Source: Spirochaetaceae bacterium (GTDB taxonomy: Bacteria; Spirochaetota; Spirochaetia; DSM-27196; SLAA01). Taken from it: a DNA stretch of 56,919 nucleotides. Positions 32,000 to 42,112 of this stretch are shown one piece after another; position 1 is the stretch's first letter, and every line of letters begins with the position of its first letter. The notes beneath the pieces were generated by a model. It did no database searches. It had not been told where the DNA came from and saw only the letters and a list, made by a program, of their open reading frames with translations. A program made the translations under genes and the position numbers. The stretch lies in the NCBI GenBank assembly GCA_003556605.1, contig PWQX01000264.1, forward strand, positions 1 to 56,919, in the 5' to 3' direction.

Positions 32000-32497
32000 T
32001 CACGCCGCTCCGGCGCGAATCTCATCCATTGCCTGAACAACCAGCCCGGGAAAATGGTTTATTTTGCGCACACCGCGGCGGACTGCTTCGACAATGGCCT
32101 CTTCACTAACGCCCGTAGCCCCGTACGACTCGGCTAACTCCATAACCTCAAGCGTAACTCTGCAATTGTCGTCGAACGGGAGCTTTGAACCGTCGATCAT
32201 AATCGAAGTGAACCCCAGCTCAAGAGCTTTCTTGATGAGATCAAGCTCCTGCGAACCCGCGTGGTCAAGATGAACCGCTACAGGAACGGCCGCACGGTCC
32301 GCGATTGCACGCAATCCTGGGGCCAGCGCATACCCGTCAATCGCCTCCCAATGGCGAGCGGCCATTCCGATGATAACCGGCACGCCCGGTTCTTCAGCCG
32401 ACGCAGCCACAGCCTGCGCCATGCCTAGATCAACGACGTTGAACGACCCTACTGCCCCTTTTGTCTGAGATAATACGCTAGCTAATGAGCTCAGCAT
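32000..32497 (-). pseudogene. Class II (fructose/tagatose-bisphosphate-type) aldolase with a large internal deletion
   Basis: AVGSFNV, VHLDH and GFTSIMIDGS joined directly to TGVSEEAI...GVRKIN; 165 aa; lacks the E.ELG, G..HG and PLVLHG segments. Confidence 0.85.
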
Positions 32498-32510
32498 GTC
32501 CGCACTTCCT

Positions 32511-33675
32511 TTATTCTGCTCTCAATGTGCGCATTCGCCGGTAGATTCCCCCGCTCTCGAGCGTATCGTGCAACTCGCGACGGAGATCCTTATTATCCTG
32601 AAGCGCACGCCGTCCGGCTTCGTCGGGGAAAACGTATTCCTCACTGTGACCGCTGAGACTTTGATAAGCCTGCAGGTGATCAGGATACACACCGAGGTTC
32701 ACCGTTGCGCTAATCATCGCCCCGAAAGCGGAGGCTCCTGGAACAGCGCTTAAACGGACCGGAGTATCGAACGAATCCGCCTGCATTTGATTAAATAATG
32801 CTATCCGTGTCAAACCGCCCGCCACGGCAACTTCACTTATATCACCGCACTGTTCCACGAGCAGGTCGAAGTTCATGCCGAGCTCCCTCGCGATAGACTC
32901 TAATACTGCTCGGGCCATGTCGCTTCGCGTTGTAGAGAGGCCGATATTCGCGATAATTCCCCGTGCATCGGCGTTCCAGAACGGCGCAGCAGCACCGGCA
33001 AAATGAGGTAATACCACTACTCCGTTGGATCCCACCGGTGATTGCGAGGCGATCTCGTTTAACCGCTCCATGTCGGCCTTCTGCACATCGCTTTGGTCTG
33101 CATCGCCCGGACCATCTCCCGCGCCGCGCCCGCTTCCGATCTCTCTCGCAAACCATTGATACACGATCCCGGTAGTGAGTATTCCGGCTCCGGCCATCCA
33201 TTTACCCGGCGCCCCTGCAGCGCTACAGAGTGTCCGCATCTCGGGATGAAATACCGGCCGTTCCACGGGAGTAATCAGAAACGATCCGGTGCCCGTATTC
33301 GCTACTGCAGTCCCGGGGTCAACAATACCCATGCCTACGGCAGACCCATGCCTACGGCAGCCAGCTGCTGATCTCCGCCTGCGAGAACTACAGGGACTCC
33401 GCTGGGGGATCCGGTTTCTCGCCTCAACGCAGCTGTTGTTGCGCCGATCCGTGCACCCGGTTCGACGGCATCGGGCAGTTTGTTTAACGGAACCTCAAGC
33501 TCCCGGAGAATCTCACAATCCCATCTCAGTCCGTTAATGTCAAACAGCAGCGTACGCGATGCCTGAGAATAATCCGTACAATACGAGCCGGTCATGAGGT
33601 ACGCGACGTAATCCTGAACTCCCAGCAGCCGTGAGCATGCGCGCAGCACATCGGGCGCATGCTGCTGCAGCCACA
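32511..33675 (-). pseudogene. FGGY-family sugar kinase remnant: N-terminus deleted, frameshifted by a 17-bp duplication
   Basis: TDYSQASRTLLFDI and GGDQQ in ORF 33335-33988; NTGTGSF, AAAPFWN..ARG, RAVLESIA and AGG..Q.QAD in ORF 32511-33332. Confidence 0.85.
33327..33360. repeat. Exact 17-bp tandem duplication causing the kinase frameshift
   Basis: ACCCATGCCTACGGCAG at 33327-33343 and 33344-33360. Confidence 0.95.
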
Positions 33676-34506
33676 TCGCGCATTCCGGACGATCAAGCAC
33701 TTCCGGATTCACCAGGAAACGCGGGGTTCCGTCACGGAACAACCTTGCGATATCTTCCATCAGCAGGAACGGAGAATTCGTGAGTGCTTCAGTGGTCGTC
33801 CCGGCGATATGCGTTGTCAGAGTAACGTTGTCCAGCTCACGCAGCTTGCTCTCTGCCGGTAACGGCTCGGTGGGAAAAACATCAAGGCCGGCGCCGGCGA
33901 TCTTTCTCTCGGCTAATGCGCGTTCAAGTGCATCTTGGTCAATCAGCCCGGCGCGACCGGTATTAATGAGGTACGCGGTGGGTTTCATTTGACTCAGCTC
34001 AGCTTCACCTGAAATCCGGAGAGCTTTCTAGCCACGAGTTGTCCGATATGCCCGAGCCCGACAATGCCCACAGTTTTCTCCTTGAGCTCAGGGATCCAGC
34101 TTGAGTTTGAGAATTCCTTGCGCCAGTCGCCGTTCTTAATCGACAAGTGGGCGCGAGCGATGTTACGAGCTTCGGCGAGATTGACGTTCTCCAGCCCAGC
34201 CCTGCATACGCCGACCACGCGCAGATCCGGCATCGACTCGAGGACGGTCGCGGAAACTGGAACAAACAGCCCTAACAGCACCTCGGCATCCGCTGCTTCA
34301 GCAACCTCTTGGGGAACCGATTCGATCTCCGGGCCGTTCTTCTCGACTTCCAGCCGGCGGTATTGCAGCTTGTCCCAATCCGGCTCCCATTCCCCAACCA
34401 CGGCTGTCTCTACGAACTCAGACAAACAGCGCTCAAACGCCGGAGCAAATAGCTTACTTGGAATCATTGCGTCACCGAGTATAAGCGCCTTGTGTATTGG
34501 TTTCAT
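33668..34506 (-). pseudogene. D-2-hydroxyacid (phosphoglycerate-DH-like) dehydrogenase remnant with two internal deletions
   Basis: CRAGLENV and GIVGLGHIG in ORF 33994-34506; MKPTAYLINTGRA, GAGLDVF.TEPL and THIAG in ORF 33335-33988. Confidence 0.85.
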
Positions 34507-36567: not shown

Positions 36568-38133
36568 GTGGACAAGAACACCATCCCTGCGACGGATTAT
36601 AAGCGCAATCTCGAAGAACTCTCGCTGCTGTTCGAAATCAGTCAGCTTCTCGATCAGAGCATGGAAATCAAACAGGTGGTGGTGCCGGTTCTGAAGGCGG
36701 TGACCGACCATCTGAATACCTTGCGAGCGACCCTCACGCTGCTCAATCGTGACACCGGCGAAATCCTGATCGAGGAAGCCTACGGACTGTCAGATACCGA
36801 ACGCGAACGCGGCCGCTATAAGCTCGGCGAAGGCATCACCGGGAAAGTAGTTGAGTCCGGCCAACCACGTGTTATTCCGCGCATATCAGAGGACCCGGCG
36901 TTTCTAAATCGCACCGGAGCGCGACGGAGTCAGAGCTGCAAGGACATCTCGTTCATCTGCGTGCCGGTGAAGATCGGCAACGAGCCTATAGGGGCGCTGA
37001 GTGTAGACCGCATGTCTGCCGGAGAATCCAAACTGCAGGACGATCTTCGGGTGCTCTCGGTCATTTCTTCCTTGATCGCGCAGGCCGTAAAAATACGCCA
37101 AGAAGCGCTTGAGGAGAAGGAGGAGCTGCTGCGCGAGAACACCCGCTTGCAGCAGCAACTGCGCGAGCGCTTTCGGCCGGCAAACATCATGGGCAAGTCT
37201 AAGGCGATGCAGGACGTGTTCGACTTGGTTGCACAGGTTTCGACGAGCGACGCTACCGTACTGGTCCGCGGGGAGAGCGGAACCGGCAAGGAGCTTGTGG
37301 CACAAGCTATCCATTACAACAGCCCGCGCAGCAAGAAGCCCTTCGTGAAAGTCAACTGCTCGGCATTACCCGAGACCGTGATCGAGAGCGAGTTGTTTGG
37401 ACATGAGAAAGGCGCTTTCACCGGTGCAAGCGCAACCCGCAAGGGCCGCTTCGAGATTGCGAACGGCGGAAGCATCTTCCTCGACGAGATCGGCGACTTG
37501 TCGGCAACTACTCAGATAAAACTGCTTCGTGTTCTCCAAGAAAAGGAGTTTGAGCGCGTGGGGGGAAACCAGACCATCCGCAGCAATGTTCGTATTATTG
37601 CCGCCACCAACCGCAACCTCGAAGAGCTCATGGAACAGAATGTCTTCCGCTCTGACTTGTATTACCGCTTGAACGTCTTCCCGATTCACATCCCACCGCT
37701 GCGCGATCGCCGCAGCGACATCCTGCTGCTGGCTGATTACTTCGTGGACAAGTACGCACGCCAGAATCACAAAGCGATCCGCAGGATATCGACTCCGGCT
37801 ATAGACCTCTTGATGGGCTACCATTGGCCGGGCAATGTACGCGAGCTGGAAAACTGTATTGAACGCGCCGTCCTGCTGAGTGTCGATGAGGTCATCCATG
37901 CACATCACCTTCCCCCTACCCTGCAATCGGCTGAGTCAACCAACACGCGGCCGCAAGGCAAGCTGGAGGAAGCGTTGAACGGGGTTGAGCGCGAATTGCT
38001 CATGGATGCGCTGAAGTCTACCAAAGGCAACATGGCGAAGGCCGCCCGCATGCTCGGAATCACCGAACGCCGAATGGGTCTGCGTGTGCAGAAGCACGGG
38101 ATTGACCCGCACACTTTCAAGACGCCGAGCTGA
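36568..38133 (+). CDS. NifA-like sigma54-dependent activator (GAF-AAA+-Fis HTH)
   Basis: GAF ([19 protein letters not shown]), [50 protein letters not shown]. Confidence 0.92.
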
Positions 38134-38251: not shown

Positions 38252-41200
38252 ATGAACACTGATATGGAACGCTTTATCGACGTCCCGACGGTCGAGCAAC
38301 TGAGGCCTTACTGCCCGGCGCTCAGCGAGGAGGAACTGGAGGCATTCCTGCGTGCCTTTCCTGAACGGTTCTATACTCGGACGCCGGCAGCGCAGATCGG
38401 GCATTACGCGAGCAGGCTCGCCGAGCTGCGACCGGATAACCCCTACGTCCTCGAGATCCAGGAGCTCGCTGATGAACGGGTCACCGTCACGTTCTACTCA
38501 TACGACTATCCGGGAGAGTTCTCGCTACTCGCCGGGATGCTCGCAGCCTGCGGGTTCAATATCGAGAGCGGTACAATCTCGACCTCCAAACCACCGGAGC
38601 TGGACCGTGAGCCGGGCGCAGCGCGAGTGAAGCACAAGCCGGGCAGCGCGCTCAGGGGCGAAGCCCGTCACGGCTCTCGCCCGCGCGGGCGCATAGACAA
38701 GCGCCTCACCGCCCGGCAGTTTCGGCGTGTCCTCGCCGGCGATTCGCCGCGGCGCACCATCATCGATACCTTCACCGGGCGCATCAACGCCGAACAAGGC
38801 CCTGACTGGTCTCAACACTTCACCGAGTATGTCGACAGCGTGATGCCTCTGCTGACGCAGAATACTCAGGAAGCGTTTGATGAAGCCAAACGTCTGGTCA
38901 ACGAGTACGTGGCTGCAGCGCTCTCGCGCACCGCAATCAGCTCCGAAGCGCTGCTATATCCGGTGGATGTGCAACTCGGCCAAGCCGAAGAAGGCTACAC
39001 GCGGCTCACAGTCATTTCCACTGATACGCCGTTCTTCCTCTACGCCCTCAGCACAGCCTTTGCACTGCACGCGTTGTCAATTGAGCAGGTTGAAATCCGT
39101 ACGCACGGCGAACAGATTGAGGACATCTTTGATCTGCTTGACGCAAACGGACAACCTATTCGCGATGAAGAAATGCTGCAGCAGGTGAAATTCTCGGCAG
39201 TCTTCACGAAACAGTTCACCTATTTCCTTGACCGGGCGCCCGACCCCTACACGGCGTTACTGCGCTTTGAGACTCTGCTGCAGAATGTCCGTCCGATGGC
39301 CGACACTATCAGCGAAACTAAGCTTCTATCCGATCCCAAAGTGCTAAAAGACCTTGCACGGCTGCTAGGTGCAAGCGATTTTCTCTGGGAAGACTTCATT
39401 CGGCTGCAGTATGAAACCCTCGTTCCGGTGCTAACGCGTGCCCGGCAAGACCGTTTGGTCAGCACGCCGCCCGAGGAGCTGGCGCAGCGGCTCCATGAGT
39501 TGCTCGACGACGCCGACTCCCCCGAAGCCGAACGCCGTGTACTCAACGAGTTCAAGGATCAAGAGACCTATCTTATCGACCTAGATCACATCCTGCACCC
39601 CGAGCTGGATTTTTTCTTTCTCAGCTCCCGCCTGACTACTCTCGCCGAGACGGTTGTGAGAACCGCGGTTGAGCTCGCGTCTCGAGAACTGGCGGCCCGC
39701 TACGGCGTTCCCCGAACCGCAGCGGGGCTCCGCGCGCCGTATGCAATTCTGGGCCTCGGAAAGCTCGGCGGGCAGGCCTTGGGCTACGCTTCCGACATAG
39801 AACTGATGTTTGTGTACAGCGACGACGGCGAGACCGACGGCGCCGAGGCGATCACGAATCGCGAGTTTTTCGAGCGTTTGTTTTCCGACGCGGTGAGCAT
39901 GATTGATGCGAAACGCGAAGGCATTTTCCAAGTAGATCTGCGTCTACGCCCACACGGCTCGGCCGGACCGCTCGCGGTGAGCATCGCGAGCTTCATTCGG
40001 TATTACTCCAACGACGCAAGCAGCCTCGAGAAGCTGGCCTTAGTACGTCTGCGGCCGATCGGCGGTGATGACCCGCTCGGCGCCCAGATTGAACGACTGC
40101 GCGATGAGCTCTTGTACGGCGCCGACAGTATTGACCGTGCCGAGCTCAAGCGGTTGCGCGCAATCCAACTGAAAGACAAAGGCGCGGCCAACCGCCCCAA
40201 CGCCAAGTTCAGCCCCGGCGGCTTAGTGGATCTGGAGTACTCGGTGCAGATCCTCCAGATTGTCCACGGGCGCAGCAATGTTGCGCTTCGAACGCCGGGC
40301 ATTCACCAGGCGCTCCGCGGGCTTGCGGACTCGGGTGCAATAGAGCCGGAAGAAGCGCAGCAGCTCGTTCAGGCCTACCGATTTCTGCGGACCGCGATCA
40401 ACGGCCTTCGAATGCTGCGCGGTAACGCGCAAGACCTGTTCTTACCCGCTCTTGACTCCATGGAATACATCCACCTCGCACGCCGCGCCGGTTATCAAGG
40501 CAAAGGCGAGCTCACGCCGGCAGCACAGTTGCACCTGGAGTTCGAGACAACCACGGCGCTGGTCCGTGCTTTCGTAGAGCGTGAGCTCGGCCGCGACGCG
40601 ATTCCGCACGACGGCGTTGCCGGCCTCGCCGACCTGGTCCTTGCCGACAGCAATCACGCCGCCACCCGGCTCGATGTGCTTGAGCGCCTCAGCTTTCGCA
40701 ACCCCGAGCGCGCGCTCGGCAATCTGCGGCGTCTCGCCGGCGCACGCGACCAGGCGTACCTGTTCGCCGAGCTTGCGGTGCTTGCGGCCGACTTGCTCCC
40801 GCGCACCCCCGACCCGGATATGGCGCTGAACAATTGGGAGCAGTTCGTCCGGCAGTTGGACGATCGCGAAGCGCACTACCGCGGATTGCTGCTGCAGCCC
40901 AAGCGCTTTGAAATCATGCTCCTGATTTTTGCCGGCAGCCAGTTTCTTGCCGACACCTTGAGCACGAATCCGCAGTTCTTGGAGTGGGTCACCACACCGA
41001 AGATCGTATCAAGCGTGCGGCGGCGCGAGCACCTGGCCGAGGAGCTCCGCCGGTTACGCGGAGCCCAACCCGAGCGTGACGCATGGCTCGCGGAGCTGCG
41101 CGATTTCCGGAAACGCGAGATCCTCCGGATCGGTACCCGTGACATCTGTCTGCGCGTCGACCAAACCGAGATCTTCACTGAGCTCACTAACCTTGCGGTG

Positions 41201-42112
41201 AGCATCGTTGCGGCGGCCTTGGACGCGGCCTGGCAAGGGTTTGAGCACGAGCCGGAGGATCGGCTGCGGTTCTGTTTATTGGCATTCGGCAAGCTCGGGG
41301 GACGTGAATTGAATTACAGCTCAGACATAGACCTGCTTGCGATCTTCGACCCGCGACAGTCGCCTCCATCCGAGCGCGAGAACACGCTGTACGCGCGGGT
41401 AATGCGGCGCTTGCGCTCGGACCTGTCTGACCATACCGAAAACGGCTACCTCTATCGGGTAGACCTGAGGTTGCGCCCGTTCGGAAGCTCAGGTCAGATT
41501 GTGCATTCGTTACCCGCGATGGTGAGATACTACAACGGGTCTGCAAGCTACTGGGAGTATCAGGCGCTGTTGAAGCTTACGCCGCTGGCCGGGAATCTCC
41601 ACGTCGGCGACCGGTTCTTGCAAGCGGTGCGGCCGGCGCTGCTGTCCGCCGGGGCCCGTACTGAGTCGGCCCGAGAGTCGGTGTTGGCGTTGCGGCGTGC
41701 CGCAGTTGCGCGCAGCTCGCCCGATGATGTGAAATCCGGCGAAGGTGGCATCCGCGACATCGAGTTTCTCGTGCAGGCGCTGCAGCTCATGCATGCTCGT
41801 CGCGCGCCGGAGCTCCTGAGCCCAAACACACTTACAGCGCTTGCCGAGCTTGAAAAACACGCGGTCCTTGACGCCGAACGCTGCCGGGTGCTTCAAGCCG
41901 ACTACCTGTGGCTGAGGCGCCTAGAGCATTATCTACAGATACTTGAAGATAGGCAGGTTCACAGCATCCCGAAGGATCCGGCGGGAAAGCTAACCCTCGC
42001 TCGCCGCCTGTTGGGCAATTCCTCCGATGAAACCGCGCTGCTGGAACAGCTGCATACTGTTCGCTCGCGAGTGCGCGATACGTTCAACCAAGTCTTGCAG
42101 AACGCTTCTTAG
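38252..42112 (+). CDS. glnE: Glutamine synthetase adenylyltransferase/deadenylylase with N-terminal tandem ACT domains
   Basis: Two GKLGG..L.Y.SD motifs, two VDLRLRP motifs and two K...GG..D.E..VQ motifs; the N-terminal ~320 aa resemble GlnD C-terminal ACT domains. Start at ATG 38252 or 38264. Confidence 0.92.
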   Translation: MNTDMERFIDVPTVEQLRPYCPALSEEELEAFLRAFPERFYTRTPAAQIGHYASRLAELRPDNPYVLEIQELADERVTVTFYSYDYPGEFSLLAGMLAACGFNIESGTISTSKPPELDREPGAARVKHKPGSALRGEARHGSRPRGRIDKRLTARQFRRVLAGDSPRRTIIDTFTGRINAEQGPDWSQHFTEYVDSVMPLLTQNTQEAFDEAKRLVNEYVAAALSRTAISSEALLYPVDVQLGQAEEGYTRLTVISTDTPFFLYALSTAFALHALSIEQVEIRTHGEQIEDIFDLLDANGQPIRDEEMLQQVKFSAVFTKQFTYFLDRAPDPYTALLRFETLLQNVRPMADTISETKLLSDPKVLKDLARLLGASDFLWEDFIRLQYETLVPVLTRARQDRLVSTPPEELAQRLHELLDDADSPEAERRVLNEFKDQETYLIDLDHILHPELDFFFLSSRLTTLAETVVRTAVELASRELAARYGVPRTAAGLRAPYAILGLGKLGGQALGYASDIELMFVYSDDGETDGAEAITNREFFERLFSDAVSMIDAKREGIFQVDLRLRPHGSAGPLAVSIASFIRYYSNDASSLEKLALVRLRPIGGDDPLGAQIERLRDELLYGADSIDRAELKRLRAIQLKDKGAANRPNAKFSPGGLVDLEYSVQILQIVHGRSNVALRTPGIHQALRGLADSGAIEPEEAQQLVQAYRFLRTAINGLRMLRGNAQDLFLPALDSMEYIHLARRAGYQGKGELTPAAQLHLEFETTTALVRAFVERELGRDAIPHDGVAGLADLVLADSNHAATRLDVLERLSFRNPERALGNLRRLAGARDQAYLFAELAVLAADLLPRTPDPDMALNNWEQFVRQLDDREAHYRGLLLQPKRFEIMLLIFAGSQFLADTLSTNPQFLEWVTTPKIVSSVRRREHLAEELRRLRGAQPERDAWLAELRDFRKREILRIGTRDICLRVDQTEIFTELTNLAVSIVAAALDAAWQGFEHEPEDRLRFCLLAFGKLGGRELNYSSDIDLLAIFDPRQSPPSERENTLYARVMRRLRSDLSDHTENGYLYRVDLRLRPFGSSGQIVHSLPAMVRYYNGSASYWEYQALLKLTPLAGNLHVGDRFLQAVRPALLSAGARTESARESVLALRRAAVARSSPDDVKSGEGGIRDIEFLVQALQLMHARRAPELLSPNTLTALAELEKHAVLDAERCRVLQADYLWLRRLEHYLQILEDRQVHSIPKDPAGKLTLARRLLGNSSDETALLEQLHTVRSRVRDTFNQVLQNAS

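Follow-up and report, generated by a model that had tools for sequence, protein, structure and literature searches.

The glnE locus and its N-terminal module

The stretch of DNA analysed here, called the window throughout, comprises 56,919 nucleotides (nt) of a Spirochaetaceae genome (assembly GCA_003556605.1, contig PWQX01000264.1) and carries a glnE gene at 38252..42112 of its forward strand. Adenylylation of glutamine synthetase (GS) is a classic bicyclic signalling cascade. The gene, as read from its open reading frame (ORF) and translation, encodes 1286 amino acids (aa) followed by a TAG stop (42110-42112), and its product is laid out as lead-in helices, two ACT units (ACT1 and ACT2), a catalytic half of the adenylyltransferase (AT) type and a catalytic half of the adenylyl-removing (AR) type. 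This permuted, ACT-bearing form is referred to as type A. A first-pass annotation of the window had described such a protein, and all ten peptide strings that it quoted were found in the translation, at the positions given or within about 15 nt of them.

The uninterrupted ORF spans 38084 (GTG) to 42112. This GTG is unlikely to be the start of glnE as it overlaps the end of the upstream gene (38133), and the N-terminus of a congener protein (MDRF...) aligns onto the MERF... of the window protein; translation is therefore likely to begin at ATG 38252 or ATG 38264. Full-length homologues are 1231-1392 aa long and 46-78% identical to the window protein.

A profile scan of the kind proposed with the first-pass annotation placed two stretches each of GlnE (PF03710, E 2e-102) and GlnD_UR_UTase (PF08335, E 2e-40) on the whole protein, together with a weak Pfam ACT match (residues 255-300, E 0.004), and GlnD models fell on the ACT region. 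The scores were below all three NCBIfam GlnE equivalog cut-offs (PRK11072, 460.1 vs 487 bits; PRK14109, 493.3 vs 625; PRK14108, 392.2 vs 724). Nor is this a full-length GlnD, since TIGR01693 scored 70 bits vs a cut-off of 519 and matched only with its ACT end and a short nucleotidyltransferase stretch. The protein belongs to the GlnE superfamily but departs from the canonical domain order, falls short of the equivalog scores and adds a GlnD module.

The lead-in helical segment (38252..38431, forward strand, residues 1-60) has helices at 14-56 and contains FPERFYTRT..., with FPERFYTRTPAAQIGHY at residues 36-52 (38357-38407), and is co-linear with the segment that precedes ACT1 in GlnD. ACT1 (38435..38857, forward strand, residues 62-202) and ACT2 (38960..39226, forward strand, residues 237-325) were delimited on an AlphaFold2 (AF2) model. 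The strands of ACT1 lie at 65-71, 76-84, 102-111 and 169-178 and its helices at 89-99 and 186-202; VTVTFYSYDYPGEF...GTISTS makes up its strand-helix-strand (residues 77-112, 38480-38587) and IIDTF stands at 170-174 (38759-38773). The strands of ACT2 lie at 239-244, 250-257, 276-285 and 288-296 and its helices at 262-272 and 306-324, with YTRLTVISTD...IEDIFDL at residues 249-295 (38996-39136). A linker helix stands between the two units in the model. A disordered insert rich in Arg and Lys interrupts ACT1 at residues 112-153 (38585-38710), where the predicted local distance difference test (pLDDT) falls to 35-55, and its length varies among homologues.

Several kinds of evidence relate this module to the C-terminus of GlnD. 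In the NCBIfam scan of the whole protein, residues ~203-313 matched the C-terminal end of GlnD (TIGR01693, about 754-838 of 850, E 1e-19), and when residues 1-319 were scanned alone, all eight matches were GlnD models (best E 3e-11). Positions 579-765 of PRK03381, also a GlnD model, matched residues 55-306 and thus both ACT units, and positions 612-845 of TIGR01693 matched the ACT region of the GlnE of relatives (E 6e-15 to 2e-18). Reciprocally, a profile made from 17 type-A N-termini aligned co-linearly to residues 642-858 of a GlnD from the same phylum (E 8e-15 at Z = 1e6) in two blocks, profile 16-107 to GlnD 642-731 and profile 166-272 to GlnD 753-858; among four GlnDs of the phylum, three were matched below E 1e-5 and the fourth at 0.34.

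The AF2 model of residues 1-333, built on a 36-sequence alignment, has a pLDDT of 85.1 (above 90 across residues 11-110) and a predicted template modelling score (pTM) of 0.83, and contains two beta-alpha-beta-beta-alpha units. Its best VIA-align match was the ACT tandem of Synechocystis aspartate kinase (3l76_B, Z 11.9, root-mean-square deviation (rmsd) 3.7 over 155 residues, model 72-325), followed by the regulatory domain of IlvA (Z 8.7) and CASTOR2 (Z 7.6); many single ACT domains aligned to residues 248-322, with Z 4-6.4 over residues 237-324. The structural assignment is based on this search rather than on Foldseek, whose hits in the PDB were mostly poor global alignments (meganucleases, rmsd ~20), with a large glutamate dehydrogenase and aspartate kinase as the only informative rows. 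A phmmer search of the PDB with the N-terminal 319 residues gave an RNA helicase as best hit (E 0.005), which was judged spurious. The claim that two ACT-like units like those at the C-terminus of GlnD precede the catalytic halves is borne out by the NCBIfam matches, the reciprocal profile, the AF2 model and VIA-align alike, and profiles and predicted structure together confirm the N-terminal region as a predicted GlnD-type tandem ACT module.

The window protein and GlnD share this region, in that the N-terminal 320 residues of the former are co-linear with the last ~230 of the latter and are predicted to fold as two ACT units. They differ in that the window protein is without a GlnD-type HD domain, carries the module at the N-terminus rather than the C-terminus and on GlnE halves, and has the long disordered insert in ACT1.

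Order of the catalytic halves and related architectures

Both catalytic halves are encoded on the forward strand. The first (39212..40654, residues 321-801, Pfam GlnE at 39347-40096) is of the AT type and groups with canonical C-terminal halves, and the second (40784..42109, residues 845-1286, Pfam GlnE at 40922-41623) is of the AR type and groups with canonical N-terminal halves. In the first, the nucleotidyltransferase motif reads G503-x-x-G506...D515-I-E517 (GKLGGQALGYASDIE, residues 503-517), the third acidic residue is D562 (VDLRLRPHGSAG, residues 561-572) and GGLVDLEY is found at 656-663. In the second, GKLGGRELNYSSD1025-I-D1027 (GKLGGRELNYSSDID, residues 1013-1027) is followed by YRVD1071LRLRP (YRVDLRLRPFGSSG, residues 1068-1081) and by GGIRDIEF at 1165-1172. 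The catalytic G-x-G...D-x-[DE] and the third acidic residue are present in both halves and are kept across the 17 type-A proteins compared.

The signatures of E. coli GlnE, which the first-pass annotation had cited, hold on the E. coli K-12 sequence, where the N-terminal half reads ELNFSSDIDL / YRVDMRLRPFGESG / GGIREIEF and the C-terminal half ELGYSSDLDL / YEVDARLRP / GGITDIEF. ELN[FY]SSDIDL, YRVDxRLRP and GGIR[DE]IEF are shared by canonical first halves and the second half of the window protein, and GGxVD[IL]E[FY] by canonical second halves and its first half. Against the E. coli structures, the second half scored 153 bits with AR (1v4a) and 126 with AT (3k7d), whereas the first half showed only a marginal preference, 127 bits with AT and 122 with AR. 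The NCBIfam GlnE models were contradictory for the separate halves (the first was matched by two models with their C-half and by one with its N-half, the second by one with its C-half and by two with their N-half) and were not used to assign AR and AT; a tree of the halves was built for that reason.

The sequences came from E. coli K-12 GlnE, 32 GlnE ORFs from the phylum of the window, 12 full-length homologues and 72 complete ORFs from 80 loci in many phyla. Proteins with one half below 140 bits or with fewer than 300 profile columns covered were dropped (24 of 118), among them all five with a degenerate second half, several spirochaete proteins of canonical length, three of type B (see below) and one of type A with a split domain, which left 188 halves from 94 proteins and 450 trimmed columns. 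FastTree (LG+gamma) recovered a single AR/AT bipartition with a support of 0.959. All 63 canonical first halves, all 17 type-A second halves and all 13 type-B first halves lay on the AR side, with the complementary 63 canonical second, 17 type-A first and 13 type-B second halves on the AT side. IQ-TREE returned the same split from 60 halves. The first halves of type A and the second halves of type B formed an exclusive clade (support 1.0 in FastTree, ultrafast bootstrap 100 in IQ-TREE). The type-A AR halves were likewise monophyletic (1.0 and 100) and, in the 60-half tree, sister to the AR halves of non-spirochaete type-B proteins. A constraint joining all first halves was 215 log-likelihood (lnL) units worse and was rejected by the approximately unbiased (AU) test (p = 1e-4; 40 halves, IQ-TREE -fast searches). 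The tree, the signature motifs and the topology test agree with the permutation claimed in the first-pass annotation and support the order ACT-ACT-AT-AR, with halves reversed relative to the canonical arrangement; the opposite grouping, first half with AR and second with AT, was not seen.

Domain mapping in the phylum distinguished three forms of GlnE, namely type A (ACT-ACT-AT-AR), type B (AR-ACT-ACT-AT) and the canonical form without ACT. The existence of the sister architecture AR-ACT-ACT-AT shows that modules were truly rearranged. Type-B proteins are 1147-1583 aa long in the phylum, with the full ACT profile between the halves, and they were also found in Anaerolineales, Caldilineaceae, Planctomycetaceae and Fraserbacteria metagenome-assembled genomes. 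They have the same three modules as the window protein, their AT halves fall in one clade with its own and both carry D-x-E; in type B, however, AR precedes the ACT-AT unit, the TKQFTYFL..APDPY junction is missing and some genomes have GlnD. This junction, TKQFTYFL..APDPY.AL.RFE between ACT2 and AT (39212-39250, residues ~315-332), is, in type A, the part of the N-terminal third that is best conserved; considered as a general marker of ACT-AT linkage it had to be set aside, being type-A specific and absent from type B. D-x-E was found in all 30 ACT-linked AT halves (types A and B), compared with D-x-D in all 63 canonical AT halves. D-x-E should be allowed within the polymerase-beta motif.

An apparent fourth architecture ("X", L107, Nitrospirae, 1302 aa) proved to be an artefact of the first-Met rule; the added residues do not resemble protein, and L107 is a canonical GlnE that behaves as one in the tree. 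Five further proteins of the same phylum (L067-L071, in G086, G103, G076, G146 and G191) are GlnE-like and 901-920 aa long; their first half matches the AR type strongly and their second half is degenerate (14-39 bits).

Residues 1-325 were searched exhaustively against 1.84 billion cluster representatives and gave 522 matches at E <= 1e-3, 202 of them at E <= 1e-10. The best 150 comprised 51 with ACT-half-half, 12 with a half before ACT (type B, some incomplete), 48 with ACT and one half and 39 ACT-only fragments. About twenty of the proteins with ACT and one half are 725-813 aa long and end directly after the AT half (P0173, P0179, P0190, P0194, P0201, P0203, P0207, P0210, P0215, P0217, P0218, P0224, P0225, P0230, P0237, P0245, P0256, P0258 and P0270 are ACT-ACT-AT only), which makes them probable stand-alone ACT-ACT-AT proteins in their own right, a split form whose AR half would be encoded elsewhere. 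The ACT tandem is always directly N-terminal to the AT half, in type A, in type B and in the stand-alone form. As all three have it, ACT-ACT-AT is a conserved evolutionary unit, with AR joined on before it, after it or perhaps not at all. A route from type B to type A may have run through duplication and deletion, or through fission and refusion.

Type A is widespread, with Spirochaetota, Thermodesulfobacteriota, Kiritimatiellae and Lentisphaerota among the named sources. The public name of these proteins is "glutamate-ammonia-ligase adenylyltransferase", and some have a precomputed Pfam ACT match. For annotation this means that proteins of ~1250-1300 aa are named generically as GlnE while their AR/AT order is opposite to what a reader would assume.

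GlnD, PII and the amtB-glnK cassette

The genome of the window (99.4% complete, 4.4% contamination, 296 contigs) holds one GlnE gene only. The search for glnD, glnB and glnK suggested in the first-pass annotation detected neither GlnD nor PII in it; there was no match to GlnD, none to PF00543 for PII (a search whose control was positive in 13 of 14 reference genomes) and none to AmtB or an ammonium transporter. The single GS is a GS-I, 55% identical to E. coli GlnA, and its adenylylation loop DKDIYDLPP aligns to DKNLYDLPP of E. coli, Tyr402 being equivalent to E. coli Tyr398 counting Met1.

Among 201 genomes sampled from the phylum, GlnE was found in 43, PII in 138 and GlnD-like matches in 37. 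Full-length GlnD was present in 9/10 genomes with a canonical GlnE in which both halves are recognisable, in 4/13 with type B and in 0/6 with type A, and PII in 9/13 and 5/6 of the latter two groups. The five genomes in which the second half of GlnE is degenerate also gave no full-length GlnD (0/5). In 24 of the 25 nearest relatives of the window's genome, GlnE scored over the cut-off with type-A spacing and lengths, and the nine loci that were fetched all had ACT, AT and AR in one ORF. GlnD was not found in any of these 25, and full-length or over-cut-off GlnD in none of 30 type-A genomes (6 from the phylum sample and 24 relatives). PII was missing from the matches in four of the five genomes of the genus (completeness 99, 85, 91 and 76%), that is, in the window's genome and in three of the four congeners searched. 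Two type-B Chloroflexi genomes, G226 (L099, Anaerolineales) and G228 (L120, Caldilineaceae), lacked both GlnD and any PII match that passed the cut-off. The loss of upstream partners would thus concern GlnD throughout type A, and PII in this genus only. The suggestion that the cascade has collapsed into one polypeptide fares accordingly: it agrees with the absence of GlnD from 30/30 type-A genomes and does not extend to PII, which most relatives keep.

The gene immediately upstream of glnE in the window (36568..38133, forward strand) encodes a regulator with GAF, sigma-54-activator AAA+ and HTH_8 domains by Pfam. In six relatives from five families (L154-L159, in G207, G220, G211, G205, G219 and G214), type-A glnE is preceded at a distance of 84-223 nt by a co-oriented gene for a 113-aa PII, which itself has amtB before it. 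This order, amtB-glnK-glnE, resembles the actinobacterial amtB-glnK-glnD operon, and its conservation suggests that the relatives may still use GlnK. In one congener (L160, G204:C149) the sigma-54 activator is followed by amtB and glnK and, where the contig ends, by the N-terminus of glnE, and in the window and another congener (L161, G202:C181) the activator, 89% identical, is followed by glnE directly with no amtB-glnK between. Since G204 has the cassette between activator and glnE and the other two lack it at this junction, it has been deleted from them. No site with up to two mismatches to the sigma-54 promoter consensus was found in the 118-nt gap upstream of glnE (the window as a whole had 45 vs 61 expected).

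In a comparison of the window with G202, a congener that likewise gave no PII match, the ratio of nonsynonymous to synonymous substitution rates (dN/dS) of glnE was ~0.11 overall, 0.13 for ACT, 0.06 for AT and 0.15 for AR, values that are rough because dS (~1.6) is near saturation. They indicate that glnE and all three of its modules are under purifying selection.

Sensing, regulation and other readings

With E. coli GlnE (1V4A for the N-terminal AR, 3K7D for the C-terminal AT) the window protein has in common two homologous halves, each with a polymerase-beta-type nucleotidyltransferase and a helical domain, the conserved signature motifs of the AR and AT types, and a GS-I with its adenylylation tyrosine in the same genome. 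It differs in that AT comes before AR behind a 320-residue GlnD-type ACT module, in the D-x-E instead of D-x-D of the AT half, and in that a PII/GlnD partner was not found in the genome. We consider it probable, with appreciable doubt, that the gene encodes a self-contained, ACT-regulated bifunctional GS adenylyltransferase/adenylyl-removing enzyme of the GlnE family, rearranged and bearing its own sensor. By analogy with E. coli, the AT half would AMPylate Tyr402 of GS and the AR half would remove AMP by phosphorolysis. The ACT tandem would bind glutamine or another amino acid that reports nitrogen status and, under plentiful nitrogen, would tip the balance of AT and AR towards adenylylation. 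In evolutionary terms, the sensor of GlnD may have moved onto GlnE in this lineage; the relatives probably still read 2-oxoglutarate/ATP through GlnK, whose gene immediately precedes glnE, and the genus that lost amtB-glnK would be left with a one-protein controller of GS.

The role proposed for the module takes its basis from its counterpart in GlnD, for passages of one study (PMC11190351) report that GlnD needs its ACT domains for its glutamine response and that an algal amylase owes its activation by glutamine to a GlnD-like ACT domain. A more specific version, that glutamine bound to the GlnD-derived ACT tandem toggles AT against AR without GlnD, and in this genus without PII, so as to make a one-protein nitrogen-status switch, is a tentative idea to which we give somewhat less than an even chance.

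A number of observations weigh against these readings. The absences of GlnD, PII and AmtB were read from an assembly in 296 contigs, and the genome counts were drawn from related genomes and are not independent. PII is kept in 22/25 of the nearest relatives and is encoded directly upstream of glnE in 6 of the 8 loci fetched outside the genus; the architecture does not generally replace PII. Nor does an ACT-linked GlnE always go with loss of GlnD, which is present in 4/13 type-B genomes of the phylum and in one planctomycete (1/4 type-B genomes elsewhere). The support for the AR/AT split was only moderate in the 60-half tree (ultrafast bootstrap 82), the ACT-linked AT halves depart from the canonical D-x-D, and an 810-residue model (pLDDT 76.9, pTM 0.63) gave no confident interface between ACT and AT. 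Finally, according to a preprint (10.64898/2026.09.02.748916), the AT domain of canonical GlnE senses glutamine without ACT, so that the ACT module may be superfluous for glutamine sensing or may have a different ligand.

This last point leads to the most serious alternative, which we regard as unlikely though well worth keeping in mind: the enzyme and its target GS are as proposed, glutamine is sensed in the AT half, and the ACT tandem binds another metabolite or serves oligomerisation or structure. The AT domains of E. coli and H. seropedicae GlnE respond to glutamine without ACT, as stated in parts of the same preprint (10.64898/2026.09.02.748916). ACT tandems as a class bind many amino acids, the best structural matches of the module were aspartate kinase, threonine deaminase and CASTOR, and the disordered basic insert of 40 residues in ACT1 is atypical of GlnD. 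A sensor of glutamine is nevertheless favoured by the exclusive match of the module to GlnD models (8/8 in NCBIfam) and its co-linearity with the GlnD C-terminus, and by the occurrence of GlnD in 0/30 type-A genomes, a pattern that fits a transfer of the GlnD sensor.

It is improbable that the protein is instead a functional analogue of GlnD that nucleotidylylates and de-modifies the PII protein GlnK in place of, or besides, GS. The co-directional run of amtB, glnK and type-A glnE in six relatives of five families and in a congener would suit such an activity, as would the ACT module of GlnD in genomes that lack GlnD itself. Both halves, however, are of the GlnE and not the GlnD type in Pfam and in the tree, and GS keeps its adenylylation loop. 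Moreover, the enzyme persists where PII was not detected: the window's genome and three of four congeners keep glnE, intact and under purifying selection in the window copy, and ACT-type GlnE occurs in the two Chloroflexi genomes without PII over the cut-off. This retention in PII-less genomes disfavours GlnK as the only target.

That glnE is a relic in this genome, its function lost with the deletion of amtB-glnK, is very hard to uphold; PII and AmtB were undetected and the window holds several fragmented genes, but the ORF of 1286 aa is intact with all catalytic residues present, and the dN/dS of ~0.11 relative to a congener sharing the deletion, rough as it is, speaks for constraint. Least credible of all is a canonical order of AR then AT with motif likeness due to convergence or uneven rates, because the mixed best stretches of the equivalog profiles and the near-equal 127 and 122 bits of the first half are outweighed by the swapped position of 17/17 type-A proteins across the AR/AT split, the rejection of the co-linear constraint (delta lnL 215, AU p = 1e-4), the presence of both clades in type B and the agreement of three independent signature motifs.

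In the literature searched, with most subscription journals outside its scope, nothing was found on a GlnE with an ACT domain, on a permutation of GlnE or on a spirochaete amtB-glnK-glnE, and the architecture was not found to have been characterised already. Direct sensing by GlnE itself is not new; the dedicated GlnD-type sensor and the rearrangement are. For the canonical GlnE of S. coelicolor and H. seropedicae, which differ in having the AR-AT order and no ACT domain, the relevant parts of the preprint (10.64898/2026.09.02.748916) describe GS AMPylation that can run without PII and a GlnE that itself senses glutamine.

Because a recognisable GlnD-type sensor sits beside the AT half as a separable part, naturally occurring proteins of this family could serve as constructs for taking apart sensing and the signalling between domains. 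We know of no structural work that has settled how GlnE binds glutamine or how its opposing active sites communicate. Within the family the modules occur in three orders, and the host genomes may have or lack GlnD and likewise PII; the loss of amtB-glnK in the genus provides a natural PII-null background. If the one-protein switch were real, it would be a natural single-polypeptide equivalent of the three-tier GlnD-PII-GlnE cascade, and the permuted (ACT-AT-AR), inserted (AR-ACT-AT) and split (ACT-AT) forms would then represent successive evolutionary wirings of the same sensor to opposing activities.

Elsewhere in the window, the reverse strand carries fragmentary ORFs at 32000-34506, comprising a partial class-II aldolase, an FGGY kinase in two pieces and a 2-hydroxyacid dehydrogenase in two pieces, with one ORF in which the dehydrogenase tail runs into the middle part of the kinase; these fragments are the outcome of frameshifts, decay or assembly errors. 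Also on the reverse strand, a 163-aa ORF at 13106-13597 matches only positions 190-324 of the 327 of PTS_EIIC_2 and looks like a shortened transporter gene.

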